A stretch of DNA of 24,000 bases, taken from NCBI GenBank assembly GCA_045606105.1, contig JAZURI010000003.1:129647-153646 (forward strand). Direction: 5' to 3'. This stretch comes from Spirochaetia bacterium (GTDB lineage Bacteria; Spirochaetota; Spirochaetia; CADAEX01). The translations under genes and the position numbers were made by a program. The first letter of the stretch is position 1. Each line of letters starts with the position of its first letter. Below are positions 4,549 to 21,255 of the stretch, piece after piece. The notes beneath the pieces are model-generated. The model had not been told where the DNA came from. It made no database searches and saw only the letters and a list, made by a program, of their open reading frames with translations.

Positions 4549-5844
4549 ATGATTGTATGCAAGTTTGGCGGAAGCTCTGTAGCAGATGCCGTACAGATTT
4601 CCAAGACACAGAATATCGTGAAGGGCAATCCTGACAGAAAGATTGTTGTTGTATCGGCTCCCGGCAAAAGGGATAAGGAAGATGACAAGATTACGGATCT
4701 GCTTTATAAATGTCACAATCTTGCAAGCAATGACAAGCCTATAGATTCCGCATGGGAAAAGATCAGGAACCGCTATCTCCAGATTGCGGCAGTTCTCGAT
4801 ATCACATGGGATCTGAAGGAGGAGCTTGATTATATTGAAAACAAGCTTGCCGGAAAATGCAGCTCAGACTATGCAGCAAGCCGCGGGGAATATCTTAATG
4901 CCAAGCTTATCTCACTTTATTTCGGATTTGAGTTCCTGGACAGTGCAGAGGTGATAAGACTGGGGGACAGAGGTGAGATTCTTCCTGAGACCTACGACCT
5001 TATAAGGGAGGCTGTGGATCCTGACAAATATTATGTGGTACCTGGCTTCTACGGACTGGGACCTGACGGAGAGATAAAGACCTTCTCCAGAGGCGGCTCC
5101 GACATTACCGGAAGTATCTATTCAAAGGCCCTTGAAGCGGATATATATGAAAACTGGACCGATGTTTCGGGTATCTATACCACAGACCCTAGAGTTGCAG
5201 AGGCCGCAAGACCTATCGACGACATTACATACAGGGAAATGAGGGAGATGGCATATCTCGGAGCAAACGTGTTCCATGAAGAGGCCATTGCACCGGCCCG
5301 CCAGGCAGACATTTCCATCAATATCAAGAATACAAACGCACCCGGGGACAGAGGAACCTTCATCAATTCCGTCAGGGATGCATCAAAGCAGGCGGTAGCA
5401 GGAATTGCCGGCAAGAGACATTTCCGCCGTATTACTGTTGAAAAATATAAGCTTGAGGACATGCACGAGCTTCATTTTGAGCTCAAGAAGGCACTTGGTG
5501 CTCTCGGTCTTATCATTGCATTCGAGCTTAAGGGAATTGATACCCTCAATTTCTATGTTCAGGATGAAAAGATGATTGACTGGGATTCCTTCGGTGAAAA
5601 GCTCAAGGCTGATCTCGATGTGGAGAAGGTGGTATATTCCGAGGACCTGGCTGTAATCGGAATAATCGGCGAAGGACTTGCCGTTTCATTCTCACATGTG
5701 CTTGAGATTCTCAATGCTGTCGGAAAAGAGGGCATCAACATAGAAAACATCAACTGCGGTGGTTCACCTATTTCTGCCGTTCTTGTTATCCGTGACGAGG
5801 ACTATGTAAAGGCAATGAATGTCATTGCTTCCGTTATTGCCTGA
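4549..5844 (+). CDS. lysC: aspartate kinase
   Basis: 431 aa. N-terminal 'KFGGSSVA' amino-acid-kinase motif, 'VVVSAPGK', 'FSRGGSD.TG' and a C-terminal ACT-like region. RBS 'caggag' lies upstream of the ATG. Confidence 0.9.
   Translation: MIVCKFGGSSVADAVQISKTQNIVKGNPDRKIVVVSAPGKRDKEDDKITDLLYKCHNLASNDKPIDSAWEKIRNRYLQIAAVLDITWDLKEELDYIENKLAGKCSSDYAASRGEYLNAKLISLYFGFEFLDSAEVIRLGDRGEILPETYDLIREAVDPDKYYVVPGFYGLGPDGEIKTFSRGGSDITGSIYSKALEADIYENWTDVSGIYTTDPRVAEAARPIDDITYREMREMAYLGANVFHEEAIAPARQADISINIKNTNAPGDRGTFINSVRDASKQAVAGIAGKRHFRRITVEKYKLEDMHELHFELKKALGALGLIIAFELKGIDTLNFYVQDEKMIDWDSFGEKLKADLDVEKVVYSEDLAVIGIIGEGLAVSFSHVLEILNAVGKEGINIENINCGGSPISAVLVIRDEDYVKAMNVIASVIA
4963..4973 (+). repeat. GGGGACAGAGG motif copy (in lysC, read as G-D-R-G)
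   Basis: Exact 11-mer. Codons are GGG GAC AGA GGt. Confidence 0.95.
5344..5354 (+). repeat. GGGGACAGAGG motif copy (in lysC, read as G-D-R-G)
   Basis: Exact 11-mer. Codons are GGG GAC AGA GGa. Confidence 0.95.
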
Positions 5845-5851
5845 ACCTGAT

Positions 5852-7096
5852 ATGAAAAAAACAGCTGCAGCCATACTGTTTCTGCTCATGCTTGCGGTTT
5901 TTCCCACATGGGGGGACGGTATCATGCCGCCTGAGCCGGTGCTCAACTGCAGGGCTGCTGTCCTTATGGACTATGATACGGGGACAGTGCTTTTCAGCAA
6001 GAACCCCTCGGCTGAAATTCCCCCGGCCTCAATGACAAAACTCATGACCTCCTTTCTCCTTTTCGAAAAAATAGAGAGGGGAGAGCTTTCACTTGATGAT
6101 ATCTATACCGTTTCCGAAAAGGCCGATTTCAAGAATGCACCACCCAGGTCGTCACTGCTTTTTCTGGAACGGGGACAGAGGTTGACAATAAAGGAGCTGG
6201 TTACAGGGCTTCTTGTGGTTTCCGGCAATGATGCGGCCACGGCAGTGGCAGAGCTGGTTGCAGGGGGACGGGAGGAGTGTGTCGCCCTGATGAACAAACG
6301 GGCCGCGGAGCTTGGGTTTCCTTCCTTTCATTTTGAGGATGTATCCGGGTACGACAGCCGCAACAAGGTCAATCCCCTTGATTTCTGCCGTTTCTGCAGG
6401 CTCTACATAAAAACCTGCTACGATTATTTTGCCGACATAGTGGGAATCGAAACATTGGGATATCCCGAAAGAAAGCATCTGGCAGGGACCAAGCCTACCT
6501 ACGGAAAAATTGTCCAGAACAATTCCAACGAGCTGATAGGGCGGTACGACGGAGTCGATGGCATTAAAACAGGTTATATAGATGAATCCGGCTATAATGT
6601 GGCCCTGACAGCCCGGAGGGACGGAATGAGGCTTGTGGCCGTGATAATGGGAATCGATGCCTCCAAACCTTCGGAGGGAAAGCTTCTCAGGGGAATAGAC
6701 GGATCTGCCCTGATTACCTATGGCTTCAGCACTTTCAGAACCTTCAGACCGGCTATGGGTGAAAAGCTTGAGATTCCGGTTTATCACTGCAGCAGCAAAA
6801 AAGCGGAAATAGTTCCGGTAATAGATACACCTGTCACTGTCCCTTACAGCCGTCTCGGAGAGCTGGTTTTCAATGTGAGCATGAAACAGGATATGAAGGG
6901 GGAAATGGCTGCGGGGACAGAGGTTGGCCGCTATACCCTGACTCTCGGGGACAGAGGTTTGGCAGAAGGTCCCATGGTTCTCAGTGAAGGGACAGAAAAA
7001 TGTTCACCTTTGCAGAATATCCCCGAATTCTTCCGCTTCCTGTTTAAAAAGTCAGTTGCAGAAAGGAAAATATCTGCTATAATATCACAGTTATGA
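5852..7096 (+). CDS. D-alanyl-D-alanine carboxypeptidase (PBP5/6-type serine peptidase)
   Basis: SxxK 'SMTK', SxN 'SGND' and KTG 'KTGY' motifs occur in the correct order. I chose the start at 'MKKTAAAILFLLMLAVFPTWG' (signal peptide) rather than the ORF-track start at 5819. Confidence 0.9.
   Translation: MKKTAAAILFLLMLAVFPTWGDGIMPPEPVLNCRAAVLMDYDTGTVLFSKNPSAEIPPASMTKLMTSFLLFEKIERGELSLDDIYTVSEKADFKNAPPRSSLLFLERGQRLTIKELVTGLLVVSGNDAATAVAELVAGGREECVALMNKRAAELGFPSFHFEDVSGYDSRNKVNPLDFCRFCRLYIKTCYDYFADIVGIETLGYPERKHLAGTKPTYGKIVQNNSNELIGRYDGVDGIKTGYIDESGYNVALTARRDGMRLVAVIMGIDASKPSEGKLLRGIDGSALITYGFSTFRTFRPAMGEKLEIPVYHCSSKKAEIVPVIDTPVTVPYSRLGELVFNVSMKQDMKGEMAAGTEVGRYTLTLGDRGLAEGPMVLSEGTEKCSPLQNIPEFFRFLFKKSVAERKISAIISQL
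6171..6181 (+). repeat. GGGGACAGAGG motif copy (in carboxypeptidase CDS, read as R-G-Q-R)
   Basis: Exact 11-mer. Codons are cGG GGA CAG AGG. Confidence 0.95.
6913..6923 (+). repeat. GGGGACAGAGG motif copy (in carboxypeptidase CDS, read as G-T-E)
   Basis: Exact 11-mer. Codons are gcG GGG ACA GAG Gtt. Confidence 0.95.
6947..6957 (+). repeat. GGGGACAGAGG motif copy (in carboxypeptidase CDS, read as G-D-R-G)
   Basis: Exact 11-mer. Codons are GGG GAC AGA GGt. It shares the 14-mer cGGGGACAGAGGTT with the copy 34 nt upstream. Confidence 0.95.
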
Positions 7097-7347
7097 CACG
7101 GGAAGATTTTATTTTTACGATAGGTTTTGACGGAGACGGTCCTGTAGTTGACAAGCTGAATGCAAAAAAATTCGGAAAACTGGGGACAGAGGATTTATTC
7201 AGGGAAGGTTTTTACAAGTCGGCAGTATGCTCTGCGGTCTTTTCAGGCAGTGAAGCGCAGGAAAAGCTGATTCTTGATCTCTACAATGAAAAATCGGACA
7301 GAAAGGTAGGTTCCTTTGCCGAACTGAAGGCTGTTTTCGGAGTCTGA
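7093..7347 (+). CDS. hypothetical small protein
   Basis: 84-aa ORF whose ATG overlaps the upstream stop (ATGA). It is on the same strand as its neighbours. I recognise no motif. Confidence 0.4.
   Translation: MTREDFIFTIGFDGDGPVVDKLNAKKFGKLGTEDLFREGFYKSAVCSAVFSGSEAQEKLILDLYNEKSDRKVGSFAELKAVFGV
7182..7192 (+). repeat. GGGGACAGAGG motif copy (in 84-aa hypothetical ORF, read as G-T-E)
   Basis: Exact 11-mer. Codons are ctG GGG ACA GAG Gat. Confidence 0.95.
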
Positions 7348-9548: not shown

Positions 9549-10508
9549 ATGAAAAACAAGATTTACGAATTCATAAAACTCAGATATATTGCTCCTGTAA
9601 CTTCCGTTGTTATCATAGTTATCCTTTTTGCAATCACAGGCGTAAAGGGTGGTTTTAACCTGGGAATCGACTTCCTGTCAGGTCTCAACATGCGTGTTCA
9701 GATTGCTCCGTCTGCAGTAAAGACTGATATTTCAGATATGAGAAATGTTCTTTCAGCAGCAGGTGCCGCTCAGATTCAGGTAATCGGAGATGCGGCTGAT
9801 CAGGAATTCAGCATCAGGGTAAGAGAAACCGGAGAGCAGACCGGTGCTGCGGTATCCGGCAAGGTTACAGACCTTCTTGAGAAGAAATTCGGTGCTGCAA
9901 ACGTTACAGTAAAACAGTCAGAGTTTTCAGGTCCTAGATTTTCACAGGCTTTGAGTCTTCAGTCTGTTTCACTTATCTGTTTCTCACTGGCACTCATGCT
10001 TGTATACATCTGGATCAGATTCAGGCTTGCATATGGTATATCCTCAATCCTGGCCCTGACACACGATGCCCTGATTATGGTTGGTGTAATCGGTGCACTT
10101 CAGCTTGAAGTTGATGTAACAACAATTGCGGCCGTGCTTACAATTATCGGTTATTCCCTCAATGCTACAATCGTTATCTTTGACAGAGTAAAGGAGAATG
10201 TTATACTGCTCAAGGGAAATCCGCTCAAGCATATCCTTAACACAAGTATTTCACAGTCACTTTCAAGAGGTGTCATCACATCCCTGACCACATTGATTGC
10301 AGTACTTGCCATTTATCTGTTCGGTGTGGGAGTTATCAAAAACTTCGCATTCAACCTGATAATCGGTATCTGTGTGGGAACCTATTCCTCATTCTTCATC
10401 GCCCCTTCTATCCTCTATATCTGGATGGCTAAGGTTCAGAAGATCAAGTTCGAGGGAGATGCCGCTCCTGTACAGGCTCAGCCTGAGACAGCAGCAGAAA
10501 CAAAGTAA
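9549..10508 (+). CDS. secF: protein translocase subunit SecF
   Basis: 319 aa with 'GIDF.GG' near the N-terminus, 'HD..I..G' and 'IGYS.N..IV.FDR..E' motifs. It lies immediately after secD. Confidence 0.92.
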   Translation: MKNKIYEFIKLRYIAPVTSVVIIVILFAITGVKGGFNLGIDFLSGLNMRVQIAPSAVKTDISDMRNVLSAAGAAQIQVIGDAADQEFSIRVRETGEQTGAAVSGKVTDLLEKKFGAANVTVKQSEFSGPRFSQALSLQSVSLICFSLALMLVYIWIRFRLAYGISSILALTHDALIMVGVIGALQLEVDVTTIAAVLTIIGYSLNATIVIFDRVKENVILLKGNPLKHILNTSISQSLSRGVITSLTTLIAVLAIYLFGVGVIKNFAFNLIIGICVGTYSSFFIAPSILYIWMAKVQKIKFEGDAAPVQAQPETAAETK

Positions 10509-10601: not shown

Positions 10602-10675
10602 GGGCCTATAGCTCAGTTGGTTAGAGCCCTCGACTCATAATCGAGTGGTCCCTGGTTCAAGTCCATGTGGGCCCA
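10602..10675 (+). tRNA. tRNA with CAU anticodon, either elongator Met or more likely Ile2 (lysidine-modified)
   Basis: 74-nt cloverleaf. The acceptor stem pairs GGGCCTA with TGGGCCC. The D-arm is 'AGCTCAGTTGGTTAGAGC'. The anticodon loop is CT-CAT-AA with CAT at 10636-10638. The T-arm is 'GGTTCAAGTCC'. No CCA is encoded. C4-G69 and C5-G68 match known TilS determinants of tRNA-Ile2, so I lean towards Ile2. It has no initiator features. Confidence 0.9.
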
Positions 10676-10677
10676 GA

Positions 10678-10708
10678 AATCTCCTGTCTTGCAGGAGATT
10701 TTTTTTTT
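10678..10708 (+). terminator. rho-independent terminator after the tRNA
   Basis: 9-bp stem: aatctcctg (10678-10686) pairs with caggagatt (10692-10700). The loop is 5 nt and the T-run extends to 10708. Confidence 0.85.
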
Positions 10709-10730
10709 GCTCTTTTGCGGTGAGTTGCGT

Positions 10731-10741
10731 GGGGACAGAGG
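10731..10741 (+). repeat. GGGGACAGAGG motif copy (intergenic, upstream of RAYT)
   Basis: Exact 11-mer in the context TTGCGTGGGGACAGAGGATATTGC. Confidence 0.95.
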
Positions 10742-10762
10742 ATATTGCTTGGTGATTGCTTG

Positions 10763-10773
10763 GGGGACAGAGA
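10763..10773 (+). repeat. motif variant GGGGACAGAGA (intergenic, upstream of RAYT)
   Basis: Context is TTGCTTGGGGGACAGAGATATTTG. It equals the upstream copy with one G deleted. A 9-nt direct repeat ATTGCTTGG (10744-10752 and 10755-10763) links the two copies. Confidence 0.85.
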
Positions 10774-10826
10774 TATTTGAAGCAGAACTTCATTAATTTT
10801 GTTTAACATTGTTAAAGGAGAAAACA

Positions 10827-11300
10827 ATGGGAAGAAGAAACAGAATCACCGTTGATGGCGGAACCTACCATATTATTAACAAAATTAATGAAGAAAAGAT
10901 GCTTCTTGAATCGTCATTGATCAAGACTTTGTTCATGAAAATAATCAAAGAGGCAAAATTTCGTAAAAAATTTAGGTTTAGTCTCAAAAATATTACAATT
11001 ATGGACAATCATATTCATATGATTATAAAAATGGAACAAGGAGAAAGCTTATCCAGGTTGATGCAGTGGATTTTTTCTGTCTTTGCCCTTCGTTATAATC
11101 GAAGATTTAACAGAAAAGGTCATCTTTGGATTGATAGATTCAAAAGTAAGCTTATAGAAACTTTATCTGCATATAGGGCAATATTTGAATATATCTGTAA
11201 TAATCCGGTTAAGGCAGGTATTGTAAAAAGTGCTGAGGATTATATTTTTGGGTTCTGGCAATTGAGAGGCAACAGCGAATTTCAGGCACTTTTTACTTGA
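10827..11300 (+). CDS. rayT: REP-associated tyrosine transposase (RAYT; IS200/IS605-like Y1 HUH transposase family)
   Basis: 157 aa counted from the ATG at 10827, with RBS aaggag at 10815-10820. It has 'YHI' near the N-terminus, the HUH motif in 'DNHIHMII', 'YNRRFNRKGHLWIDRF' and the Tyr-bearing 'FEYICNNPVKAGIV'. The gene is much more AT-rich than its neighbours. Confidence 0.8.
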   Translation: MGRRNRITVDGGTYHIINKINEEKMLLESSLIKTLFMKIIKEAKFRKKFRFSLKNITIMDNHIHMIIKMEQGESLSRLMQWIFSVFALRYNRRFNRKGHLWIDRFKSKLIETLSAYRAIFEYICNNPVKAGIVKSAEDYIFGFWQLRGNSEFQALFT

Positions 11301-11331
11301 AAATCTGACATGGATTAATTAAATTAAAGTT

Positions 11332-12123
11332 ATGAACCGATTGGAGCTTCTTGATAAGGTTTATAATGAATATCATCGGGAGGAGTACATATATCCTGAT
11401 CCTCTGTCCCCGGTATTATCCTATAAAAACGCCGATGACAGGGAAGTTGCAGCTATTATTGCATCTTCTCTTGCTTTAGGACGGGTTGATCTTATCCTTA
11501 AAGCGGTAAATTCTGTGCTTTTACCACTCGGCTCTCATCCGGCTTCTGAACTTGATTCTCTCTCGGTGTCGGATTTGAGAGAAATTTATCATGATTTCGT
11601 TTATAGATTTTTTAAAACCGATGAAATAACCGGTTTTTTATATGCAATTAAGGTGATACGCGGGGACAGAGGAAGCCTCCAAGCCCTTTTTACCACAAAT
11701 TACACCCAAGGAAAGGGCATTACAAGCGGTATTACAGCTCTCAGCAATGAAATTGCCAGGATTTCAGAGGGTAAATCGGCTATGTTGCTCCCATCTCCTG
11801 AAAAAGGCAGTGCCTGTAAAAGGGTTAATCTTTTTCTTAGATGGATGGTCCGGCATGATAACATTGATCCGGGAGGATGGTCTGATATAAATACCTGTGA
11901 TTTGTTGGTTCCGGTTGATACCCATATGTATGATATTGCAAAACGTCTCAGGTTTACATCCAGAAAGACTGCAGATTTCAAAACAGCAGTTGAAATTACT
12001 GCCGGTTTTGCAGAAATTGTTCCTGAAGACCCTGTAAAATATGATTTTTCACTTACAAGATTGGGAATACATCCTGATCTTGATAAGGAAATATTTAAAA
12101 ATCTTGATTTTAAAGGAGAATAG
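11332..12123 (+). CDS. DUF2400/TIGR02757-family protein (uncharacterised; HhH-glycosylase-like fold by recollection)
   Basis: 263 aa. 'DP...Y....DRE.AA.IAS.LA.GRV', '[12 protein letters not shown]' and 'L..P.DTH' match my memory of the TIGR02757 family. I cannot confirm this without an HMM search. Confidence 0.6.
11401..11411 (-). repeat. GGGGACAGAGG motif copy, inverted (in DUF2400 CDS, read as P-L-S-P)
   Basis: Exact reverse complement CCTCTGTCCCC. It lies 101 nt past the RAYT stop. Codons are CCT CTG TCC CCg. Confidence 0.95.
11662..11672 (+). repeat. GGGGACAGAGG motif copy (in DUF2400 CDS, read as G-D-R-G)
   Basis: Exact 11-mer. Codons are GGG GAC AGA GGa. Confidence 0.95.
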
Positions 12124-12292: not shown

Positions 12293-12327
12293 GGGGACAG
12301 AGGTTTATCTGATAAACCTCTGTCCCC
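12293..12327. repeat. perfect 35-bp palindrome built from two inverted motif copies (possible terminator or REPIN/DUS-pair-like element)
   Basis: GGGGACAGAGGTTTATC-T-GATAAACCTCTGTCCCC, giving 17-nt arms around one central base. It starts 13 nt after the rubredoxin stop. No T-run follows. Confidence 0.9.
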
Positions 12328-12352: not shown

Positions 12353-12381
12353 TTGACATTCCCATTCCTTTACTCTATTAT
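12353..12381 (+). promoter_or_regulatory. sigma70-type promoter for the gap-pgk-tpiA-secG cluster
   Basis: TTGACA (12353-12358), a 17-nt spacer, then TATTAT (12376-12381). RBS aggaga is at 12405-12410 and the gap ATG is at 12418. Confidence 0.55.
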
Positions 12382-12387
12382 ATATAA

Positions 12388-13425
<1,038 letters not shown>

Positions 13426-13444
13426 TAAAGCTAAGGGTAGGATA

Positions 13445-14626
13445 ATGGTACTCAATACAATCAGGGATGCAGATCTGACAGGTAAACGTGTTCTCATCCG
13501 TGTCGACTTCAATGTGCCTCTCAAGGATGGTATAGTCAAGGATGATACAAGAATCCGTGCGGCTGTTCCTACTATTGAATATATTCTTTCTCAGAAGGGA
13601 ACTTCTGTTGTGGTCATGAGTCATTTCGGTCGTCCTAAGGGACAGAAGAATCCGGAATTTTCCATGGCTCCTATCGGAAAGAGATTCCAGGAGATCATCG
13701 GGCGTCCCGTAAAGGTTGCTTCAGATGTCATCGGTGATGCCGTAGCAGCAGAGGCTTCTGCTCTCAGAGAGGGAGAAATCCTTCTTCTTGAAAATGTCCG
13801 CTTCTATCCTGAAGAGGAAAAGAACGGTACAGAATTTGCCAAGGCACTTGCATCTCTCGGAGATGTTTATGTGAACGATGCTTTCGGTACTGCCCACAGA
13901 GCCCATGCCTCCACAGAGGGTGTTGCCCATTTCCTCCCTGCATATGCCGGATTCCTCATCGAGAAAGAGGTAAAGTTCATGGCTCCTCTTCTTGAGAATC
14001 CGGCTCATCCTTTTGTCGCCATCATCGGCGGTGCAAAGGTTTCCTCCAAGATCGGAGTTCTTCAGTCGCTTCTCAGAACCTGCGATACAATGGTTATCGG
14101 CGGGGGTATGGCCTATACATTCCTCAAGGTACAGGGATACAGTGTAGGTAAGTCTCTCGTGGAAGCTGACTATATCGATACAGCAAAGGCTTTCCTTGAA
14201 GCTGCAGCTGCCAAGAATGTAAAGGTAATCCTCCCGGTTGACCATGTGGTTGCCGCTTCATTTGCAGAGGATGCCGCACCTGAGCTTATCAGCTCTCCTG
14301 ACATTCCTGAAGACAGGATGGGAATGGATGTGGGACCTGAAACCATTGCCCTTATCAAGGAGGCTCTGGCTTCAGCAGCAACTGTTGTATGGAACGGACC
14401 TCTCGGTGTATTCGAGTTTGACAGCTTCGCAAAGGGAACTCTTGAAATTGCCAGATCTGTTGCTGAATGCAGCGGCATTACTGTTGTAGGAGGGGGAGAT
14501 TCTGTAGCGGCTGTAAACAAGTTCGGCCTTGCAGACAGACTCAGCCATGTTTCTACCGGCGGCGGTGCTTCATTGGAATTCCTTCAGGGACTTCCGCTTC
14601 CGGGAATTGTTGCTTTGGAAAAATAG
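13445..14626 (+). CDS. pgk: phosphoglycerate kinase
   Basis: 393 aa with 'RVDFNVP', 'SHFGRPKG', 'GGAKVS.KI' and '[11 protein letters not shown]'. Confidence 0.97.
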
Positions 14627-14634
14627 GGGGATTT

Positions 14635-15390
14635 ATGTCCAGAATCAGATATATCGCAGGTAACTGGAAAATGAACAAGCTTTCAGGCGAAGCAGTTACA
14701 CTTGCAAAGGAAATAGCAGAAGGTGCAAAGGATCTCGGATGCAGAATCATGATCGCACCTCCTTTTACAGCTCTCTCTGAAGTGAGCAAGGTTGTCAGGG
14801 GAACAAATGTTCTTCTCGGTGCCCAGAATATGTCAAATGCCGTTTCAGGTGCATACACCGGAGAGGTTTCACCGGACATGCTTATCGATCTCGGTGTTTC
14901 CGTTGTTATTCTCGGTCATTCCGAAAGACGCACCCTTTACGGAGAAACAGATGCTTTCATCAATTCAAAGGTGAAGCTTGCCCTTGAAAAGGGTCTTGAT
15001 GTGATTCTCTGCGTAGGTGAGACTCTTGCTGAAAGAGAAGCAGGAAAAGCTGCGGAAATTGTATCTTTTCAGGTTGAAAACGGTTTGAAAGATATAAGTG
15101 TTGATTTTATTGAAAAAATTACGGTTGCCTATGAGCCTGTATGGGCTATCGGTACCGGAAAGACAGCAACTGCCGAAGATGCAGAGGCTGTTCATAAGGT
15201 TATCAGGGAAAAGCTTGCTGAAATGTACAGTTCAGAGGCTGCAGAAAAGGTACTTATCCAGTACGGCGGTTCCATGAAGCCTGAAAATGCTGCCGGTCTT
15301 CTTGCAATGCCTGACATTGACGGCGGACTTATCGGCGGTGCAGCCTTGAAAAGCGAAAGCTTTTTGGCTATACTGAAATGTGCTGAATAA
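14635..15390 (+). CDS. tpiA: triose-phosphate isomerase
   Basis: Start taken at 'MSRIRYIAGNWKMN' (ATG at 14635, G-rich RBS just upstream) rather than the ORF-track start at 14467. Motifs include 'GHSERR', 'AYEPVWAIGTG' and 'YGGS'. Confidence 0.95.
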   Translation: MSRIRYIAGNWKMNKLSGEAVTLAKEIAEGAKDLGCRIMIAPPFTALSEVSKVVRGTNVLLGAQNMSNAVSGAYTGEVSPDMLIDLGVSVVILGHSERRTLYGETDAFINSKVKLALEKGLDVILCVGETLAEREAGKAAEIVSFQVENGLKDISVDFIEKITVAYEPVWAIGTGKTATAEDAEAVHKVIREKLAEMYSSEAAEKVLIQYGGSMKPENAAGLLAMPDIDGGLIGGAALKSESFLAILKCAE

Positions 15391-15404
15391 TTAAAGAGGT
15401 AAAT

Positions 15405-15731
15405 ATGGGAATTTTAAGTATTATTTTGCTTGTTTTGTTTGTTATTGCATCACTTCTGCTTATTCTTCTTGTTCTTGTGCAGGATGATCAGGGTGACGGT
15501 ATCGGAGGGATCTTCGGAGGCGCAAGCTCAACTCCTTTCGGTTCAAAATCAGGAAATGTCCTCACAAAGTTTACATCTATTCTGGCGGCATTCTTCCTTA
15601 TCCTTTCTCTCGGTCTGGCATGGGTCAACAGAAGTACTGAACAGGACGACCTTCTCGGTTCTGTAAAAAGCGCTGAAGCAGCTGAAGCAGCTGAATGGTG
15701 GAATGAATCTGCCGAACAGGGAAATAAATAA
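15405..15731 (+). CDS. secG: preprotein translocase subunit SecG
   Basis: 108 aa with two TM segments flanking the Gly-rich 'GDGIGGIFGGASS' loop. It sits in the conserved position after tpiA. The acidic Ala/Glu tail contains a short 9-nt tandem repeat. Confidence 0.85.
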   Translation: MGILSIILLVLFVIASLLLILLVLVQDDQGDGIGGIFGGASSTPFGSKSGNVLTKFTSILAAFFLILSLGLAWVNRSTEQDDLLGSVKSAEAAEAAEWWNESAEQGNK

Positions 15732-15746
15732 TCCGGGGTTTCTGTC

Positions 15747-16763
15747 ATGAAAAAGTTTCTTCTTGCGGTTTTCCTTACATTAGTGTGCCTCGGTGACGGT
15801 TTTGCTCAGGAATCCCTTGATTCAAAGGTTGCCATAGTAAATCTCACCAAGCCTGAAATCATATCCAGAAAACAGCTGGATCAGACTGTCAAGCTTCTGC
15901 AGGCTACCGGAATCAACAAAAGCGAACAGGAAATTCTTGAAGTCATGATTGACGATGTTCTTCTTAAACAGGGAACAGAAAAAGAAGGAATTAATATTTC
16001 AGAGGCTGAGATTATTTCAGCTCTCAGAAAGGAAGTAGGAGCTTCAGGCCAGGCTGCAACCGATGACCAGCTCAAGCAGTTCGTTGAACAGCGGATGCAG
16101 GTAAGCTGGAACGTTTATGCCGACAGAAGCAAGACTACTCTGGGAATCCAGAGATATATCAGGAAGGTAAAGGGAAGCAAGCTTTCCAATATCCCTGCAC
16201 CGTCTCAGCCTGAAATCCAGCGTTTCTACGACAGCAACTCAAAGCAGTTCTTCGTTCCTAAGACAGTTACACTGGACCATATCTATGTGGACACCAGATC
16301 CCTTACTGCCGACGAAAAGGCAAAGGCACTGGAGCGTATAAATGAATACAGCACCAAGATAAAGAAGGATTCAAAGGAATTTGACAAATATGTTGAATTC
16401 TCCGATGATTCCGCTTCCAAGTACAACAACGGAAGATTCGGTACTCTCCGTATCGACGATGTCAACAGGAAGAAATTCATGGGCGAAGATTTCTTTACTG
16501 CAGTTTTTGCAATGAACAAGGGCGATATCAGCTCTGTCATCACATCCAATGTAGGATATCACATTGTAAGGGTTGCAGATGTTTCCGAACCAAGACTTCT
16601 CGGTATCCATGAAAAGATTTCCGAAAATCAGAAGCTTACCGTAAGCGATACAATCAAGCAGTATCTCACAGCCCAGAAGCAGGACATGATTTTCAAGGAA
16701 TGTGTAAAAGAGGTCACAGAAGATCTCAGAAAAAAAGCTGACATCAAATATTTTCTGAAATAA
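15747..16763 (+). CDS. secreted/lipoprotein parvulin-type peptidyl-prolyl isomerase (SurA/PrsA-like)
   Basis: Signal peptide 'MKKFLLAVFLTLVCLG'. The C-terminal PpiC-type domain has 'F..VF.M.KGDIS.V..S..GYHIVRV'. Confidence 0.75.
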   Translation: MKKFLLAVFLTLVCLGDGFAQESLDSKVAIVNLTKPEIISRKQLDQTVKLLQATGINKSEQEILEVMIDDVLLKQGTEKEGINISEAEIISALRKEVGASGQAATDDQLKQFVEQRMQVSWNVYADRSKTTLGIQRYIRKVKGSKLSNIPAPSQPEIQRFYDSNSKQFFVPKTVTLDHIYVDTRSLTADEKAKALERINEYSTKIKKDSKEFDKYVEFSDDSASKYNNGRFGTLRIDDVNRKKFMGEDFFTAVFAMNKGDISSVITSNVGYHIVRVADVSEPRLLGIHEKISENQKLTVSDTIKQYLTAQKQDMIFKECVKEVTEDLRKKADIKYFLK

Positions 16764-16766
16764 GCT

Positions 16767-17186
16767 ATGGGTGCAATGCATAAGGCAAGGGTTCTTGCAT
16801 TTCAGATAATTTTCAGCTGGGATTTTGAGAGGCGGGCTGTACCCGAAAATCTTTTTGACTCGGTAAGGAATCTTTCCAACGAGGAGTTTGATATTGCTTC
16901 CGAAACATATGTCAAGCTTACTGTCTGCGGTACTATTGAAAATATCGATAAAATAGACAGCATGATCAGGGAGCATCTCCGTAACTGGAAATTCGACCGT
17001 ATTGCCAAGGTAGATCTGGCTATTCTCCGTCTCAGCGTATACGGGCTTCTTTTCCAGAAAGATACGGATGGGAAGATTATTATCAATGAGGCCGTGAAGA
17101 TTGCCCAGGAATACGGAAATGATGATTCCTATAAATTTATAAACGGTCTTCTGGATTCTATTTACAAGAAAAATGATAAGACTTAA
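16767..17186 (+). CDS. nusB: transcription antitermination factor NusB
   Basis: 139 aa with 'AR..AFQ..F', 'W...R....D..ILR...YEL-like (LRLSVYGLLF)' and 'INE.V..A..YG......F.NG.LD'. Confidence 0.88.
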   Translation: MGAMHKARVLAFQIIFSWDFERRAVPENLFDSVRNLSNEEFDIASETYVKLTVCGTIENIDKIDSMIREHLRNWKFDRIAKVDLAILRLSVYGLLFQKDTDGKIIINEAVKIAQEYGNDDSYKFINGLLDSIYKKNDKT

Positions 17187-17919
17187 ATCAAAGAAAGATA
17201 TTTCCGGTATCAGGGATGCCGGTGCCATTCTTGCAGAAACACTGGACAAGATAAAAAAAGAGCTTCAGGCTGGAATGAAGACCTCTGACATTGATGATAT
17301 TGCCAGGGAGTATATCATTTCCAGAAAGGCCAGACCGGCTTGTCTCGGTTATATGGGCTATCCTGCCAGTATCTGTGTTTCGGTTAACGAAGAGGTAATC
17401 CACGGTATTCCCGGTAAAAGGGTAATCAGGGAAGGTGATATTGTAAGCTGCGATCTCTGTGTGGATCTCAAAGGTTATATTGCTGACAGTACCGTTACCA
17501 TTCCTGTTGGAAAAATCTCTCCTCAGGCCGAAAAGCTTCTTAAGGTTACCGAAGAGTCCCTTTATCTGGGTATCGAGAAGGCAGTGGCCGGAAATCGTGT
17601 CATGGATATTTCCAGATCGGTTTTCATTCATGCCAAGAAACATGATTTAGGTGTTGTTCGTGATTACTGCGGTCACGGAGTAGGCTTTGATATGCATGAG
17701 GAGCCTGCTGTTCCCAACTACATTTTCAGAGGGGCAAATCCTCATCTCAGGGAAGGAATGGTTATTGCCATCGAGCCTATGATTACATTGGGATGTGACG
17801 ATATTGATGTTCTTGATGATGACTGGACCGTAGTTACAGCTGACGGTTCCCTTGCAGCTCATTTTGAACATACCGTAGCCATCCACGACGGTTATGCCGA
17901 AATACTTACAAAACTATGA
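17173..17919 (+). CDS. map: type I methionine aminopeptidase
   Basis: 248 aa with 'GYPASICVSVNEEV.HGIP', the metal ligand context 'D.....GY..D' and 'GHG.G...HE.P'. 'EPM' and 'HFEHT' are also present. It overlaps the nusB end by 14 nt. Confidence 0.93.
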   Translation: MIRLKSKKDISGIRDAGAILAETLDKIKKELQAGMKTSDIDDIAREYIISRKARPACLGYMGYPASICVSVNEEVIHGIPGKRVIREGDIVSCDLCVDLKGYIADSTVTIPVGKISPQAEKLLKVTEESLYLGIEKAVAGNRVMDISRSVFIHAKKHDLGVVRDYCGHGVGFDMHEEPAVPNYIFRGANPHLREGMVIAIEPMITLGCDDIDVLDDDWTVVTADGSLAAHFEHTVAIHDGYAEILTKL

Positions 17920-18521
17920 AAGAATTCCTCGATTACTATGTTGTCAGAAACAATGCCATAAAGCTTGCTCACAGGATGTTCAGTGAGGGCTTTGTTCCCG
18001 ATATCATCTATGTACCTCTCAGAGGAGGTGCCTATCTGGGAAATGTCATCAGCGAATACTACAAGATAGCTCTCAGGAATACAGACCATAAGCCGGTCCG
18101 TTATGCTGCTCTGGTGGCAGGCTCCTATTCCGGAGTAAAGAACCACGGCGATGTTGTTATACAGGGCTGGACCTATCCGCCCGAAAAAGTGAATCCTGAC
18201 GAAAAGATTCTTTTTGTGGATGATATCTTTGATTCCGGAAGGACCATCAATTTCATTATAAAGCATCTTATTTCTCTGGGGCTGAAACGGGAAAATATCG
18301 TCATTGCTGTCCATGACTACAAGATTCAGGAATATAAGAACGAAATGCCTGAAATTCTTCCCGACTATTACTGCAGAAAGCATGTCATCAAGAGGGAAGA
18401 GGACGAAATCTGGATCAATTATCAGAGCCACGAGCTTGTGGGGCTTTCAAAGGATGAGCTTGAAAACCATTTCTATAATGAAGATCCTACTCTCCGGGAA
18501 GCTCTTTCGATTCTGGAATAA
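17916..18521 (+). CDS. phosphoribosyltransferase family protein (purine PRT-like)
   Basis: 201 aa with the PRPP-binding motif 'ILFVDDIFDSGRT'. The start overlaps the map stop (ATGA). Confidence 0.7.
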   Translation: MKEFLDYYVVRNNAIKLAHRMFSEGFVPDIIYVPLRGGAYLGNVISEYYKIALRNTDHKPVRYAALVAGSYSGVKNHGDVVIQGWTYPPEKVNPDEKILFVDDIFDSGRTINFIIKHLISLGLKRENIVIAVHDYKIQEYKNEMPEILPDYYCRKHVIKREEDEIWINYQSHELVGLSKDELENHFYNEDPTLREALSILE

Positions 18522-19876
18522 ACCATTTTTTTCATCGTGATTATGAAGCACACATACAGGGCCAGGAAGGTTATGGTCCAGGATATGCTGTATACTGCAT
18601 AAATTGTCTCCAGCTTATGGAATGCCGGTATCTGAAACACGGTAAAAACCCAGAGAATCCTGAAGGCACAGGCTCCCAGCAGCGATGTTACGGTAGGGAT
18701 TATGGAGTGGCCCATTCCCCTCAGTGTACCTGATATGATTTCCATCATTCCACACAGGAAATAAGGAAGACAGAGATATTTCAATCTCATCATTGCAGAT
18801 GATATTACATCCGGATCTGTGGAATAGAGTCCTGCTATCTCGTTTCCGAAGAATACCACCGCCCCTCCCACCGAGGCACCTGTCACTATTACACAGGCCA
18901 GAGCCGTAAGCTGTACCCTGATTATCCTTCTGAAGTTTCCGGCTCCCATGTTCTGGCCCGTAAAGGAGATGGTGGCCTGATAGAAGGCGTTCATGGCAAA
19001 ATAGACAATATATTCGATATTCATGGCAGCTGCGTTTCCTGCCACCACTATTGCTCCGAAAAGATTGATTGAGGAGAGGATAACCACATTGGAGAGGGAA
19101 AATACCATGCCCTGGATTCCGGCCGGTATTCCTGTTCTCATTATCATGTAAAGCTGGGCTCTGTGGAATCTGATTCTGCTGATAACCAGGTTTACGGCTC
19201 CTTTGTCCCTGATCATGCAGCTGACTATGAGACAGCTGGCTACAGCCTGGGAAATGACTGTGGCCAGGGCAACTCCTGCCACATCCCACCTGAACTTTAT
19301 TACGAAAAGCAGGTTGAAAAGAACATTGATGATTCCGGCAATGATAAGGAACATGAGAGGTCTTCTGGTATCGCCTACAGCTCTCAGCACAGCGCTTCCG
19401 AAATTATATACGATGGTGGCTATTATTCCGAGGAAATAGATACGGAGATAGAGGGTTGCAAGATCGAGAATCTCTTCCGGAGTGCTCATCCATATGAGAA
19501 AAATCCTGGCAAACAGCGTACCGAAAACGGTAAGTATGATACCGCCCGCAATACTGAGGGCCATGGTGGTATGTATTGTCCTGCTGAGCTCTTCACTCTT
19601 TCTTGCGCCGTAATATCTTGCAGTGACTATATTTGCACCGATGGAGAGACCTACGAACAGATTGACCATCAGGTTTATGAGGGAGGAATTGGCACCTACG
19701 GCTGCCAGGGAATTGCTTCCTGCAAAGCGTCCTACCACTATGATGTCGGTGGCAGTGAAGAGTAACTGAAGGATGGATGAACACATCAACGGTAAAGCAA
19801 ACAGGATTATTTTCTTTAAAATCGGACCATTGCACATGTCGATTTCATAACTTTTTCCCATAAGAAAATTTTCCAA
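18473..19876 (-). CDS. MATE family efflux transporter
   Basis: 467 aa with 12 predicted TM segments. The N-terminal 'GPILKKI..FALP......LQ.LF...D...VGRF.G' is typical of MATE/NorM proteins. The true start may be the Met at 19861. The 3' end overlaps the convergent PRT gene by 49 nt. Confidence 0.85.
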   Translation of the reverse strand: MENFLMGKSYEIDMCNGPILKKIILFALPLMCSSILQLLFTATDIIVVGRFAGSNSLAAVGANSSLINLMVNLFVGLSIGANIVTARYYGARKSEELSRTIHTTMALSIAGGIILTVFGTLFARIFLIWMSTPEEILDLATLYLRIYFLGIIATIVYNFGSAVLRAVGDTRRPLMFLIIAGIINVLFNLLFVIKFRWDVAGVALATVISQAVASCLIVSCMIRDKGAVNLVISRIRFHRAQLYMIMRTGIPAGIQGMVFSLSNVVILSSINLFGAIVVAGNAAAMNIEYIVYFAMNAFYQATISFTGQNMGAGNFRRIIRVQLTALACVIVTGASVGGAVVFFGNEIAGLYSTDPDVISSAMMRLKYLCLPYFLCGMMEIISGTLRGMGHSIIPTVTSLLGACAFRILWVFTVFQIPAFHKLETIYAVYSISWTITFLALYVCFIITMKKMVYSRIERASRRVGSSL

Positions 19877-19933
19877 CTAACTTTCTGATTTGTCAATAGT
19901 TGTATAATAAAGTATTTGATGATATTTTAAGGT

Positions 19934-20695
19934 ATGGAAAAATATGCTGTTGTCGGCAGCGGCTCTTGTGGTAATTCATACATTTTCAAAACGGCGGAGT
20001 CAGGCTTTGTTGTGGATAACGGCTATTCCTTTTCAGAATTTTCCCGCCGTATAAAGTCCATGGATTTTGATATCAGAGATATAAGATACATTTTTCTTAC
20101 CCATAATCACAAGGATCATATATCAGGTATGGAAATTCTTTCCAGAAAGCTGCAGATTCCGGTTTTCGTAGCTGAAAATCTTGATCTTTCAAGCAGTCTT
20201 AAGGAGGGCTTTTTCAGGACTGTAGAGGTCACTCCGGGCAATACCTACAGGGTGGACGATTTTACATTTACCGTTTTTTCCACTACTCATGATGCACCCT
20301 GTTCCGTGGGATACAGCTTTGCCACATCGGAATCCAGATATACTATAATTACAGATACGGGAAAAACCTCCGAGCTCATGAGAAGCCTTGCGGATCAGTC
20401 AGATGTGCTTTTCCTGGAGGCAAACTATTGTCCCGAGATGCTGAAAAAAGGTCCCTATCCCTATTTCCTGAAAAAAAGGATTTTTTCGGATCACGGCCAT
20501 CTTTCAAACCATGATGCGGTCGATTTTATCAAAAAACTTGATTCAGGTAAAAAAAGAAGTATATACTTATGTCATATATCAGATAAGAATAATTCTCCCG
20601 AAAGGGTAAAGGAAGTCTTTGACTCTGAATTTTCGGGAGATCTGGATTATCATATTTGTAAACGAGGTATTCCCGTTTTGGGAAAAAGGAGTTGA
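19934..20695 (+). CDS. MBL-fold metallo-hydrolase
   Basis: 253 aa with the 'THNHKDH' (HxHxDH) motif and a later 'HDA...G' and 'DHGHLSN'. Confidence 0.8.
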   Translation: MEKYAVVGSGSCGNSYIFKTAESGFVVDNGYSFSEFSRRIKSMDFDIRDIRYIFLTHNHKDHISGMEILSRKLQIPVFVAENLDLSSSLKEGFFRTVEVTPGNTYRVDDFTFTVFSTTHDAPCSVGYSFATSESRYTIITDTGKTSELMRSLADQSDVLFLEANYCPEMLKKGPYPYFLKKRIFSDHGHLSNHDAVDFIKKLDSGKKRSIYLCHISDKNNSPERVKEVFDSEFSGDLDYHICKRGIPVLGKRS

Positions 20696-21255
20696 TCATG
20701 GATAAAAGAATTCTTGTTCTTCTTGCAGAGGGCTGCGAGGAAATGGAGGTTGTGATTCCTTCCGATCTGGCTGTAAGGGCAGGTCTTGATGTTGTAATGG
20801 CAGGAATAGAAGGAATCGATATAACAGGTTCCCACGGGATTTCCCTTATTGCAGATTGCGAGATCGTTGATATTGCAGATGAAATCTTTGATGCCGTAAT
20901 CATTCCGGGAGGAATGCCGGGTGCCGAGAACATTGCAAACAATGAGGTTGCCATGGAGGTAATCCAGAGGCATGCAGACAAGGAGAAGCTTATCTGTGCC
21001 ATCTGTGCCGCGCCCGGTGTAGTTCTGGGAGATACCAGAATTCTTGATGACCGTATGGTTACCTGCTATCCAGGCTTTGAAAAGCATTTCAACCGTACTG
21101 TAACCTATATCGAGGATAAGGTTGCTGTCAGCGGAAATGTCATTACTGCAAAGGGCCCGGGAGCAGCTTTCCTGTTCGGCCGTGAAATTCTCAAGGCTCT
21201 TCTGGGAGAGGTTGTGGCAGACAAGGTTCTGCAGGGAACTTTCTATTCATGCTGA
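20692..21255 (+). CDS. DJ-1/PfpI family protein
   Basis: 187 aa with 'ILV.LA.G.EE.E' at the N-terminus and the nucleophile elbow 'AICAAP'. It overlaps the upstream stop (ATGA). Confidence 0.85.
   Translation: MIMDKRILVLLAEGCEEMEVVIPSDLAVRAGLDVVMAGIEGIDITGSHGISLIADCEIVDIADEIFDAVIIPGGMPGAENIANNEVAMEVIQRHADKEKLICAICAAPGVVLGDTRILDDRMVTCYPGFEKHFNRTVTYIEDKVAVSGNVITAKGPGAAFLFGREILKALLGEVVADKVLQGTFYSC

Follow-up and report, generated by a model that had tools for sequence, protein, structure and literature searches.

RAYT-like Genes and Their Repeats

RAYT-type enzymes are found in about one quarter of bacterial species. In the literature, the largest RAYT group (Bertels Group 1, or Quentin subclass 2.1 and its relatives) is characterized as lacking associated repeats.

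The closest described arrangement is the TIRtron, in which a RAYT-like Y1 gene is flanked by inverted repeats that are not REPs. The terminal inverted repeats (TIRs) of these TIRYT genes share GGGGWSAS, i.e., GGGG[AT][CG]A[CG] (Di Nocera, De Gregorio, and Rocco, 2013, PMC3733652; PMC6006769). TIRYTs were equated with TnpAY1 subclass 2.1 (Quentin et al., 2018; PMC6006769), the proteins of which have ~238 aa, a C-terminal HTH-like domain and the Y-motif YIELNP or Y[IV]HLNP (PMC6006769). The published TIRtron work includes no examples from Spirochaetota and describes neither intragenic nor dialect behavior of the repeats.

REPtrons (Nunvar, 2010; Bertels and Rainey, 2011; Ton-Hoang, 2012; Messing, 2012, structure 4ER8) resemble the locus described here in their domesticated Y1 enzyme with a co-evolving flanking repeat, in having several RAYTs per genome, each with its own repeat family, and in their inverted doublets. 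However, the unit here lacked both a GT[AG]G tag and an internal hairpin, the copies were not extragenic, and 16-mer-based detection (Bertels, 2017) would miss a 10- to 12-mer. Insertion sequences of the IS200/IS605 type (IS608, ISDra2) share the Y1/HUH chemistry on single-stranded DNA, block duplication and short specific end sequences, but they are multicopy and near-identical, possess the Y-x3-Q motif and subterminal hairpins, and have no dispersed solo words. The DUS/USS of Neisseria and Pasteurellaceae are also exact 10- to 12-mers that are hundreds-fold over-represented, occur without indels in genes and in all frames, favor weakly constrained sequence, form inverted pairs behind genes and show dialects in related lineages. 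They are spread evenly with no transposase gene and no strong sense bias, whereas the word described here flanks a Y1 gene on both sides, varies along with that gene, appears to be enriched nearby and is uneven in density. Chi and KOPS are likewise G-rich, strand-biased and over-represented, but they have 5–8 nt and follow the replication direction. Here, the word was tied to a specific gene and its orientation flipped with gene orientation within a locus; a replication-oriented reading of this kind, which was also considered, appears less likely.

The locus lies in a 24-kb stretch of DNA from a gut spirochaete, which is called the window here. We interpret it, with a probability of about 0.7, as a TIRtron-type unit that comprises a RAYT-like Y1/HUH gene and its cognate word GGGGACAGAG(G), which belongs to the GGGGWSAS family. 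The consensus was matched by GGGGACAG and by the variant GGGGTCAG, and GGGGACGG deviated at one position. Terminal inverted repeats were represented in the window by a 13-nt repeat, the right arm of which was absent from the sister species. As in TIRtrons, the repeats lie at roughly fixed distances from the gene, the copy number appears to be low with occasional duplicates, and some families of the repeat occur in moderate numbers elsewhere in the genome. The sequence-only reading had compared the locus with RAYT genes flanked by REPs, and the TIRtron/TIRYT class with its GGGGWSAS repeats (PMC3733652, PMC6006769) fits better. The locus differs from described TIRtrons in its unit of only 10–12 nt and in its solo copies, which are mostly intragenic, indel-free, sense-biased and conserved between species. 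It also differs in its protein of 157 aa, which has no C-terminal HTH-like domain and carries YICNNP. The subclass assignment is by motif only. The YICNNP and NHIH motifs look more like those of subclass 2.4 (PMC6006769). Membership of the TIRYTs at the protein level is thus tentative, because the domain and Y-motif of subclass 2.1 are missing and the motifs resemble subclass 2.4.

The RAYT Gene and Its Flanking Copies

The features of the window are as follows.

196–206, + strand: solo copy in the shikimate kinase gene (GTE), window-specific
1227–1237, + strand: solo copy on the antisense strand of an Rce1-like gene, window-specific
4963–4973, + strand: solo copy in the aspartokinase gene (GDRG), kept in L211
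5344–5354, + strand: solo copy in the aspartokinase gene (GDRG), kept in L211
6171–6181, + strand: solo copy in the D-Ala-D-Ala carboxypeptidase gene, RGQR over an invariant GQ, kept in L211
6913–6957, + strand: two solo copies in direct orientation, 34 nt apart, both within the D-Ala-D-Ala carboxypeptidase gene but read in different frames (AGTE and GDRG), the first kept in L211 and the second window-specific
7182–7192, + strand: solo copy between the carboxypeptidase and yajC genes, within a called 84-aa ORF of L001, kept in L211
10602–10675, + strand: tRNA-Met (CAT) gene (ARAGORN, Rfam), 100% identical in the sister species L211, with the RAYT unit directly downstream
10675–10709, + strand: terminator-like hairpin and T-run after the tRNA gene, with the RAYT unit starting just past it
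10725–10746, + strand: upstream copy 1, unit TTGCGTGGGGACAGAGGATATT with core GGGGACAGAGG at 10731–10741, kept in L012 and L211
10756–10777, + strand: upstream copy 2, core GGGGACAGAG at 10763–10772, 54 nt before the ATG
10827–11300, + strand: RAYT-like Y1/HUH gene (PF01797, NF047646, 4ER8, alignment)
11332–12123: DUF2400 gene, containing the downstream inverted copy
11401–11411 (10-mer 11402–11411), − strand: downstream inverted copy CCTCTGTCCCC, DUF2400 codons 24–27 (P-L-S-P)
11662–11672, + strand: solo copy in the DUF2400 gene (R-G-D-R-G), kept in L012 and L211
12293–12327: inverted pair in convergent orientation, GGGGACAGAGGTTTAT-CTG-ATAAACCTCTGTCCCC, past the rubredoxin gene
22169–22179, + strand: solo copy in gene 21249–22688 (GTE), the sole copy within 12.4–24 kb

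The RAYT ORF was intact (157 aa) and preceded by a good ribosome-binding site. Its protein matched Pfam Y1_Tnp (PF01797) over residues 10–126 (E = 3.8e-15), with no further domain in the Pfam search, and passed the NCBIfam model NF047646 (REP_Tyr_transpos) with 85.9 bits against a cut-off of 80. The HIH motif (residues 62–64) and Y122 were invariant across the homologue alignment. E. coli TnpAREP (4ER8) was the sole PDB match, and its HMH and YIYINPVKHG aligned with HIH and YICNNPVKAG (residues 122–131). The protein thus combines the Y1_Tnp fold, the HUH motif and the catalytic Tyr of the Y1 (HUH) superfamily, and its Y-motif YICNNP carries the Y-x3-NP signature of RAYTs rather than the Y-x3-Q of IS200. 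The original gene call, with its coordinates and both motifs, was confirmed. Exact-protein look-ups returned no match, either for the RAYT translated from each of its two start codons or for the Rce1-like protein.

The 10-mer GGGGACAGAG occurred 15 times in the window (13 on the + strand, 2 on the − strand) against 0.06 expected, with a single one-mismatch variant. Conservation past it ended at an 11th base G (14/15) and a 12th base A or T. Rfam found only the tRNA in the window, and the reading of the word as an RNA family was set aside on that result. A literature search for the literal words returned only eukaryotic primers and similar sequences.

Two direct copies upstream of the RAYT gene and one inverted copy downstream had been described in the sequence-only reading. 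That layout stood, as did the position of the right-hand copy inside DUF2400 codons 24–27; only the start coordinate of the extended units was one base off. The outer upstream copy and 11399–11411 had 13 nt (GGGGACAGAGGAT) in common in inverted orientation. With 15 copies placed at random, at least two upstream and at least one downstream copy would occur with P ~9e-5, and an inverted pair bracketing the gene with P ~1e-3; such a bracket would seldom arise by chance at this motif density.

This bracket did not recur in the sister species (L012 and L211), where the downstream copy was missing. There the DUF2400 site reads CCTTTATTCCC, with three substitutions, a Phe/Ser difference and no indel. 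In other relatives, the downstream copies lie 2–25 nt past the RAYT stop codon, and the window copy is not an ortholog of these. The downstream inverted copy of the window is a solo copy missing from the sister species. Of the copies at the window RAYT, the upstream pair alone is ancestral.

As single-stranded DNA, the RAYT flanks in the window did not fold (z = +0.6 and +0.7). The absence of an internal hairpin from the unit, noted earlier, stood. Relatives do form a hairpin, from an inverted pair of copies upstream of the gene; the extended stems of these pairs were lineage-specific. The only REP-like structure in the window was the pair at 12293–12327, a perfect 16-bp hairpin (z = −8.5), which was kept in L211 with the inner stem and loop changed (GGGGACAGAGCA...TGCTCTGTCCCC). 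When metagenomes were scanned for convergent copies with the pattern GGGGACAGAG-N0-30-CTCTGTCCCC, at least 120 matches were obtained. Nearly all of those listed were unrelated single hairpins; none of the listed matches lay with a RAYT, and nearly all had no further copies.

Homologous Loci and Block Duplication

Every homologue with at least 56% identity was flanked by the same 10-mer GGGGACAGAG, and copies were kept on both sides of homologues (56–74% identity) that lay in no fewer than five other genomic contexts. The layout was repeated at independent loci (L003, L004, L014 (=L006), L013 (=L008), and the window (=L012/L211)) and was degenerate in L005. It comprised a (+) copy 54–136 nt upstream, a second copy farther upstream and, in the relatives, the copy past the stop codon; upstream copy 2 of the window is the positional counterpart of the first of these, which lay 58–127 nt upstream in every homologue. 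Inverted copies were present on both sides of the RAYT in L003, L004, L006/L014, and L008/L013.

L003 and L004 were identical over ~630 bp with motif-bearing ends and unrelated flanks, and the RAYT unit lay directly past terminator T-runs at three loci (the window, L003, and L004). The gene and its flanking copies were thereby shown to be able to move as a ~630-bp block that lands just past terminators. Pyrophosphatase orthologues were used to look for an empty site corresponding to the L004 unit, but the downstream synteny differed.

Such mobility, together with at least four RAYT copies of three types in one MAG, two of them identical and sharp-edged, would fit an active IS200-like insertion sequence, with the words as its ends or preferred target and the solo copies as footprints or targets; Bertels' Group 1 RAYTs are also the most IS-like. 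We nevertheless consider this explanation improbable. The RAYT gene was syntenic between the window and L211/L012, with 73% DNA identity in a surrounding region of 80%, and on this synteny appears to be vertically inherited. The protein failed the IS200 model (32.6 bits, cut-off 55) and passed the RAYT model. No subterminal hairpins of the IS200 type were found in the window, and the single identical pair was seen in another genome. Nor are the solo copies footprints left by indels; they are conserved, either through selection or through drive. Finally, a protein scan of viral contigs yielded only two distant relatives of the RAYT (32–33% identity), and a pattern scan of viral contigs for the word found single hairpins only.

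Covariation of Gene and Word

Distant homologues (33–50% identity) from Spirochaetota, Leptospira and Bacillota were flanked by related words, including GGGGACGGAG, GGGGTCAGAG, GGTGTCAGAGC and others. These words, assessed from explicit lists of top k-mers per locus, were also the top k-mers of the loci, and the related-word signal was higher in RAYT flanks than in random flanks (Mann-Whitney p = 3e-7). The top 9-mers of the loci were shifted in register relative to GGGGWSAS.

The MAG from horse faeces contained three RAYT types, the flanks of which carried ...GAGG, ...GAGCA and ...GAGCT, respectively. Among its solo copies, GAGCA was found in 5/13 near the GAGCA type and in 0/14 near the GAGG type (Fisher p = 0.016). 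At the level of sequence comparison, the gene and the word were thus shown to co-occur and co-vary down to paralogue-specific dialects. Related genes elsewhere carry their own versions of the word; therefore, gene and word probably belong together. The covariation check suggested by the sequence-only reading was positive, with the same 10-mer at 56% identity or above, variants beyond, and dialects matching paralogues in one genome. Of the two options left there, an atypical RAYT–repeat relationship was favored by covariation and dialects over a by-product of density.

Solo Copies

Ten of the 15 window copies (67%) were intragenic and occupied all three reading frames, in agreement with the earlier remark that most dispersed copies lie in genes. 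Ten of 14 motif sites were conserved in the sister species L211 (80% DNA identity) against a baseline of 18.6% (P = 2.4e-5). At four comparable sites, solo copies differed from homologous sequences by substitutions only, with no indel, and in the carboxypeptidase gene the copy at 6171–6181 showed no indel against 13 homologues, nor did those at 6913–6957 against theirs. On this evidence, the solo copies are most likely not insertions. The sense strand carried ~54:12 of the intragenic copies (~82%), a bias that tracked gene orientation within loci. In minority-strand genes, word orientation followed the gene at ~13:6, where replication direction was inferred from GC skew only. Solo copies were enriched in weakly conserved genes.

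Two RAYT-less loci (L212 and L214), one from a RAYT-bearing genome and one from a relative, contained one copy per ~21 kb each. Motif density appears to be highest around RAYT genes, among motif-rich loci that were, all but two, sampled for containing a RAYT. The genome-wide mobilization mentioned earlier is unproven for this word: the solo copies are not insertions and the two RAYT-less loci were nearly empty. An argument for block conversion, based on lineage-specific sites that differ at 5–8/11 positions, was dropped, as the flanks of these sites have diverged almost as far and an outgroup is lacking.

Exact, indel-free intragenic copies in all frames and terminator-like inverted pairs are a signature of the DUS/USS type. 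This pattern, in weakly constrained genes, and the presence of copies in three of the six larger intergenic regions of the window are what would be expected if GGGGACAGAGG were a host signal unrelated to the RAYT (uptake-like, Chi/KOPS-like or RNA-level) and the gene merely lay in a motif-rich intergenic region. The bracket itself (P ≤ 1e-3) argues against such a by-product of density, as does the three-copy layout at unrelated loci; in L003, L004, and L006 all intergenic copies belonged to the RAYT flanking set. Moreover, the word changes with the RAYT lineage across phyla, and in one genome three dialects match three paralogue types, the local dialect being that of the local RAYT. An orthologous block without RAYT in the horse-faeces MAG had 0 copies, compared with 8–9 in the window and L211, and orientation tracked genes rather than the locus-wide skew of Chi/KOPS. 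This explanation was largely refuted and is very unlikely.

Scarcely tenable is a classical REP/REPIN–RAYT system, in which the 11-mer would merely represent that half of a normal REP hairpin which is conserved: the hairpin at 12293–12327, the REPIN-like upstream pairs of relatives and the match to the NCBIfam RAYT model would suit it, but the unit had neither a 5′ GT[AG]G tag nor a palindrome, the RAYT flanks did not fold, conservation was confined to 10–12 nt, 12/15 window copies were unpaired, L212 and L214 were too sparse for an extragenic genome-wide repeat, and the 67% of copies in genes were free of indels, in contrast to the intragenic REPs in the literature, which are 20- to 30-codon insertions.

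Proposed Explanation and Significance

Under the TIRtron-type reading, the protein would bind the word in single-stranded DNA and probably nick and rejoin it there. A hairpin of two inverted copies may be the form recognized at the upstream end of the gene in most relatives. Exact solo copies would persist and multiply through something tied to the enzyme, either selection for sites that it uses or a bias in short-patch conversion. They would accumulate where proteins tolerate G-D-R-G, G-T-E or G-Q-R, preferentially near the enzyme gene. Against this explanation, we know of no Y1 reaction that makes an 11-nt intragenic word without an indel. The sense bias and the enrichment in weakly conserved genes would also be expected from a DUS/USS-like drive unrelated to the enzyme. 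The unfolded flanks and the non-ancestral downstream copy of the window also count against it, as do the protein features that differ from subclass 2.1.

A more speculative extension, which we regard as doubtful, is that the Y1 enzyme surrounds its gene with a halo of its word, which it would either generate or keep up. Exact copies of 10–12 nt would enter nearby coding sequences without insertion, through replacement of short patches or strongly biased repair. They would lie on the sense (non-template) strand, match the dialect of the local paralogue and fade with distance. This would be a cis-acting, transposase-driven sequence drive, for which there is to our knowledge no precedent, and it would account for the failure of 16-mer-based surveys to find repeats for this RAYT group.

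The TIRtron arrangement is already known and has been described once before; the 10- to 12-nt unit and its spread inside genes are new. These results suggest that the repeats of the largest RAYT group were missed because they are 10–12 nt long and mostly intragenic. In practice, there is a risk of taking words of this kind for uptake signals or Chi-like signals. If the TIRtron-type reading is correct, an uncharacterized enzyme family would gain a defined, testable DNA target, there would be a case of a short word kept up within coding sequence alongside a particular enzyme gene, and there may be a process that rewrites neighboring genes without insertions.

The RAYT gene and the word in the window

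The sequence-only reading had described a RAYT gene bracketed by copies of one motif, and its description of the region matched the sequence. Upstream, SecD and SecF come first; next are a terminator and a promoter-like site, and then tRNA-Met with a second terminator behind it.

Features around the RAYT gene in the window
10602–10675, tRNA-Met
10675–10709, second terminator with T-run, directly after tRNA-Met
10731 and 10763, two direct copies of GGGGACAGAG, each within a ~22-nt unit, upstream of the RAYT ORF
10827–11300 (+), RAYT ORF, 157 aa, with a good ribosome-binding site
11332–12123, DUF2400 gene, starting 31 nt past the RAYT ORF
11401–11411 (−), inverted copy CCTCTGTCCCC, codons 24–27 of the DUF2400 gene

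The ORF matched Y1_Tnp in Pfam (E 3.8e-15) and passed the NCBI curated RAYT model (85.9 bits; cut-off 80), and it did not reach the IS200 model (32.6; cut-off 55). The sole relative of its protein among solved structures was E. coli TnpAREP (4ER8); in their alignment, HIH fell on the HUH motif and Y122 on the catalytic Tyr motif.

The word GGGGACAGAG occurred 15 times in the 24 kb (13 on the + strand; 0.06 expected), with just one 1-mismatch variant. The copy flanks were unrelated apart from G at the 11th base (14/15) and A or T at the 12th. Ten copies were intragenic and spread over all three frames; eight were sense, encoding GDRG (four), GTE (three) and GQR (one), and two antisense. Five were intergenic, though non-coding DNA made up only ~7% of the window. 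Two convergent intergenic copies (12293–12327) formed a perfect 16-bp hairpin (z −8.5), directly 3′ of the rubredoxin gene and ahead of a GAPDH promoter-like site (12353–12381); this hairpin may serve as a terminator or be the word in a REP-like form. In the window, the sequences on either side of the RAYT gene showed no fold (z +0.6 and +0.7). Zero copies were found in the 10 kb at 12400–22100, compared with 14 in the 12 kb upstream; the copy-free part comprised highly conserved genes (GAPDH, PGK and TIM, through SecG to NusB and beyond).

The same layout at unrelated loci

By random placement, at least two upstream copies plus at least one downstream copy would be expected with P ~9e-5, and any inverted pair with P ~1e-3. 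Homologues of the RAYT protein formed a small Spirochaetia clade (56–99% identity), and the same copy layout recurred at loci with wholly different neighbour genes.

Comparison loci and the neighbour genes of their RAYT
L003, SSF / DUF401
L004, pyrophosphatase / PTS-EIIA
L014 (=L006), POR / M20
L013 (=L008), EF-G / unknown

In these four loci, a (+) copy was located 58–127 nt ahead of the ATG and a second, inverted copy 22–99 nt further upstream; one copy followed 2–25 nt past the stop codon. The layout copies were the sole intergenic copies of the word in L003, L004 and L006, and they were degenerate at another locus, L005. The upstream inverted pairs displayed lineage-specific extended complementarity (CAACCTCTGTCCCC/GGGGACAGAGGTTG in L003 and ATGCTCTGTCCCCC/GGGGGACAGAGCAT in L006) and formed hairpins when folded as ssDNA (z −4.3 to −4.6).

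L003 and L004 both belonged to one horse-faeces MAG (GCA_024402405.1). They were identical over ~630 bp (9865–10495 in each). The shared stretch extended 26 nt beyond the outer upstream copy on the left and 9 nt beyond the downstream copy on the right, and the flanks outside it were unrelated; the unit comprised the gene, three flanking copies and one copy within the gene. Therefore, the gene and its ends moved recently, and they are mobile as a block. Both units begin immediately after the T-run of a rho-independent terminator, as does the window unit (after 10709), which suggests that the RAYT unit inserts next to terminators.

A conserved AATTTGAATCA(G/A)AA stretch, with a small hairpin after it, was observed between the (+) copy and the RAYT start codon (window 10773–10800; L003 9935–9975; L006; L008; L010), and the stretch was found even in a 44%-identity clade without the word. 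The stretch may represent a promoter or operator of the RAYT gene. L001, whose strain was 99.3% identical to the window, had a tandem duplication of 12 nt, GAGTTGCGTGGG (~5610–5640, window 10720–10731), adjoining the first upstream copy, an instance of small-scale instability at the word itself.

Covariation of gene and word

Scanning one genome per species yielded 79 loci with RAYT relatives (33–74% identity). Their commonest 10-mers were lineage-specific words related to GGGGACAGAG and were also the top k-mers of the RAYT flanks. Compared with flanks taken at random from these loci, RAYT flanks were richer in frequent k-mers (p 3e-7).

Lineage-specific words at loci with RAYT relatives
GGGGACGGAG, several Spirochaetia and Oceanispirochaeta
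GGGGACGGTG, loci L034 and L049
GGGACGGTTC, Bacillota
GGTGTCAGAGC and GGGGTCAGAGC, Leptospira and other Spirochaetota
GGGGTCAGAC, loci L087 and L037
TGGTGCCAGA, termite-gut Treponema
GGCACAGAGC, Gallitreponema

The sequence-only reading had proposed covariation as a check, and the word indeed changed with the RAYT lineage: exact GGGGACAGAG was enriched at all loci of the clade with at least 56% identity and, outside it, only in L061, where the gene is partial and lies at the end of a contig. The horse-faeces MAG contained three RAYT types, flanked by words ending in GAGG, GAGCA and GAGCT, respectively, and all three dialects were represented among its solo copies. GAGCA accounted for 5/13 solo copies near the GAGCA-type gene vs. 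0/14 near GAGG-type genes (Fisher p 0.016). The dialect was GAGCT throughout in L005 and L061, and GAGG in the window.

Two explanations had been proposed for the bracket: a by-product of very high motif density, or an atypical RAYT–repeat relationship. The former was rejected because gene and word covaried across lineages and paralogue dialects and the layout was repeated at unrelated loci. The latter was borne out, and the gene–word link proved stronger than was visible from the window alone.

Origin and maintenance of solo copies

In a sister species, 16.5 kb of a 127-kb contig (L211; also L012) showed synteny with the window, at a DNA identity of 80%, and the RAYT occupied the same position (74% amino-acid and 73% DNA identity). 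Of the 14 window copies that fell within the alignment, ten were exact in L211 (binomial P 2.4e-5), against a baseline of 18.6% for all 10-mers and 22% for purine-rich ones. Solo copies are thus conserved between species, and the conserved ones included copies within otherwise diverged intergenic DNA. The rubredoxin-side hairpin kept its arms, and its inner stem and loop were changed (GGGGACAGAGCA...TGCTCTGTCCCC).

Four copies were specific to the window (196, 1227, 6947, and 11402) and three to L211. Site 11402 was CCTTTATTCCC (P-L-F-P) in the sister species, three substitutions away with no indel. The word–gene finding is real, and the bracket in the window is only half ancestral: the + upstream copies are ancestral, and the − downstream copy is lineage-specific.

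An alignment of the carboxypeptidase and 13 homologues placed no indel at any of its three motif sites, and the word overlay ordinary residues, e.g., an invariant GQ. Copies clustered in less conserved genes, namely carboxypeptidase (70% DNA identity; three), DUF2400 (71%; two) and aspartokinase (80%; two), and zero were found in SecD/F, GAPDH and PGK (82–92%). Word orientation follows the gene: ~54 copies were sense vs. 12 antisense across the clade, minority-strand genes included (two mis-called ORFs were corrected by hand). Where comparison was possible, the alignments indicated that solo copies are of substitutional origin and not insertions; published intragenic REPs are insertions adding 20–30 codons. 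The solo copies are maintained by selection or a continuing bias.

At L014 (17145–19153), a FabF-like ketosynthase gene and a convergent SpoU-like methyltransferase gene carried three sense copies each within 1.6 kb.

Density around RAYT genes

Nearly all motif-rich loci had been chosen for holding a RAYT, and two samples were not so chosen. The first, L212 (GCA_024402405.1 contig 6, 36047–57273), covered 21 kb at 31–52 kb from that contig's RAYT. It was orthologous to the window block from shikimate kinase to SecF, with no tRNA-Met, RAYT or DUF2400 after SecF, and is a natural RAYT-absent control. It held one copy of GGGACAGAG in 21 kb (Poisson P ~0.004 against 0.36 copies/kb at the four RAYT loci of this MAG) and none in the orthologous block, which had eight copies in the window and nine in L211. 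The second, L214–216, from a related species (pyrophosphatase 87% identical), had no RAYT in 22 kb and one copy.

Pooled over 37 loci, the density was 2.2/kb within 1 kb of the gene, 0.58 at 1–2 kb, ~0.4 at 2–5 kb and 0.13–0.3 at 5–10 kb; chance density was ~0.008 per kb. The fall beyond 1 kb was not clear in the window clade alone, and L013 was a RAYT locus with almost no solo copies. The uneven density and the local dialect match hinted at a neighbourhood effect of RAYT, which we flag rather than claim because samples were few. A sequence drive that acts in cis around the RAYT gene seemed an unlikely reading.

Possible mechanism and relation to known systems

Y1/HUH enzymes bind and cut ssDNA at specific sequences, usually beside a hairpin. 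Based on this family knowledge, the RAYT protein would recognise the word on ssDNA, the relevant strand would be the sense (non-template) one, and the upstream inverted pair might be the hairpin form of the recognition site. Exact copies in genes could reflect selection for enzyme-usable sites or short-patch conversion bias; both would fit, and to our knowledge neither has biochemical precedent in this enzyme family.

RAYT-like genes flanked by terminal inverted repeats (TIRs), and not REPs, were described previously; the arrangements were named TIRtrons and the proteins TIRYTs, many TIRs shared GGGGWSAS and lay a fixed distance away from the gene, and only in some genomes did TIR families reach moderate abundance (Di Nocera et al., 2013; PMC3733652). 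TIRYTs mostly correspond to TnpAY1 subclass 2.1 (Bertels Group 1), with the repeat consensus GGGG[AT][CG]A[CG] and "no REP" (Quentin et al., 2018; PMC6006769). Group 1 flanking 16-mers occur only ~12 times genome-wide (Bertels et al., 2017; PMC5581495).

The GGGGACAG of the window matches GGGGWSAS and the architecture is shared, which makes the TIRtron the closest known system; the earlier frame of a REP-mobilising RAYT gives way, as TIRtron fits and REPtron does not. In this TIRtron unit, gene and word co-occur and covary. The window protein is short and lacks a C-terminal domain, unlike subclass 2.1, and its YICNNP/NHIH motifs resemble subclass 2.4. The unit would be a TIRtron at the level of architecture, and its protein a putative TIRYT.

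Other repeats were observed at loci with RAYT-like genes. The RAYT loci L033 and L057 were very rich in words that do not belong to the GGGGWSAS family, namely AGGCTAGTGT (28 copies, all intergenic) and GTACCAGGTG (20 copies). In L022 (termite-gut Treponema), a dense TGGTG(T/C)CAGA array with 10–30-nt variable spacers (14478–15399) was located ~5 kb from a RAYT-like gene, seemingly within an ORF. The viral-classified IMG/VR contig 3300008418_000052 (L228) had a RAYT-like gene that was only distantly related (32% identity), together with at least 17 copies of palindromic GGGAC(A/T)GTCCC, which is self-complementary and related to the word.

In the literature, the term TIRYT was confined to the Di Nocera and Quentin lines of work. 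We found no description there of a minimal 10–12-nt unit, of mostly intragenic, indel-free, sense-biased solo copies and their between-species conservation, of dialect–paralogue matching, or of a possible halo. None of these features, from the 10–12-nt unit to the possible halo, would be picked up by a census based on 16-mers.
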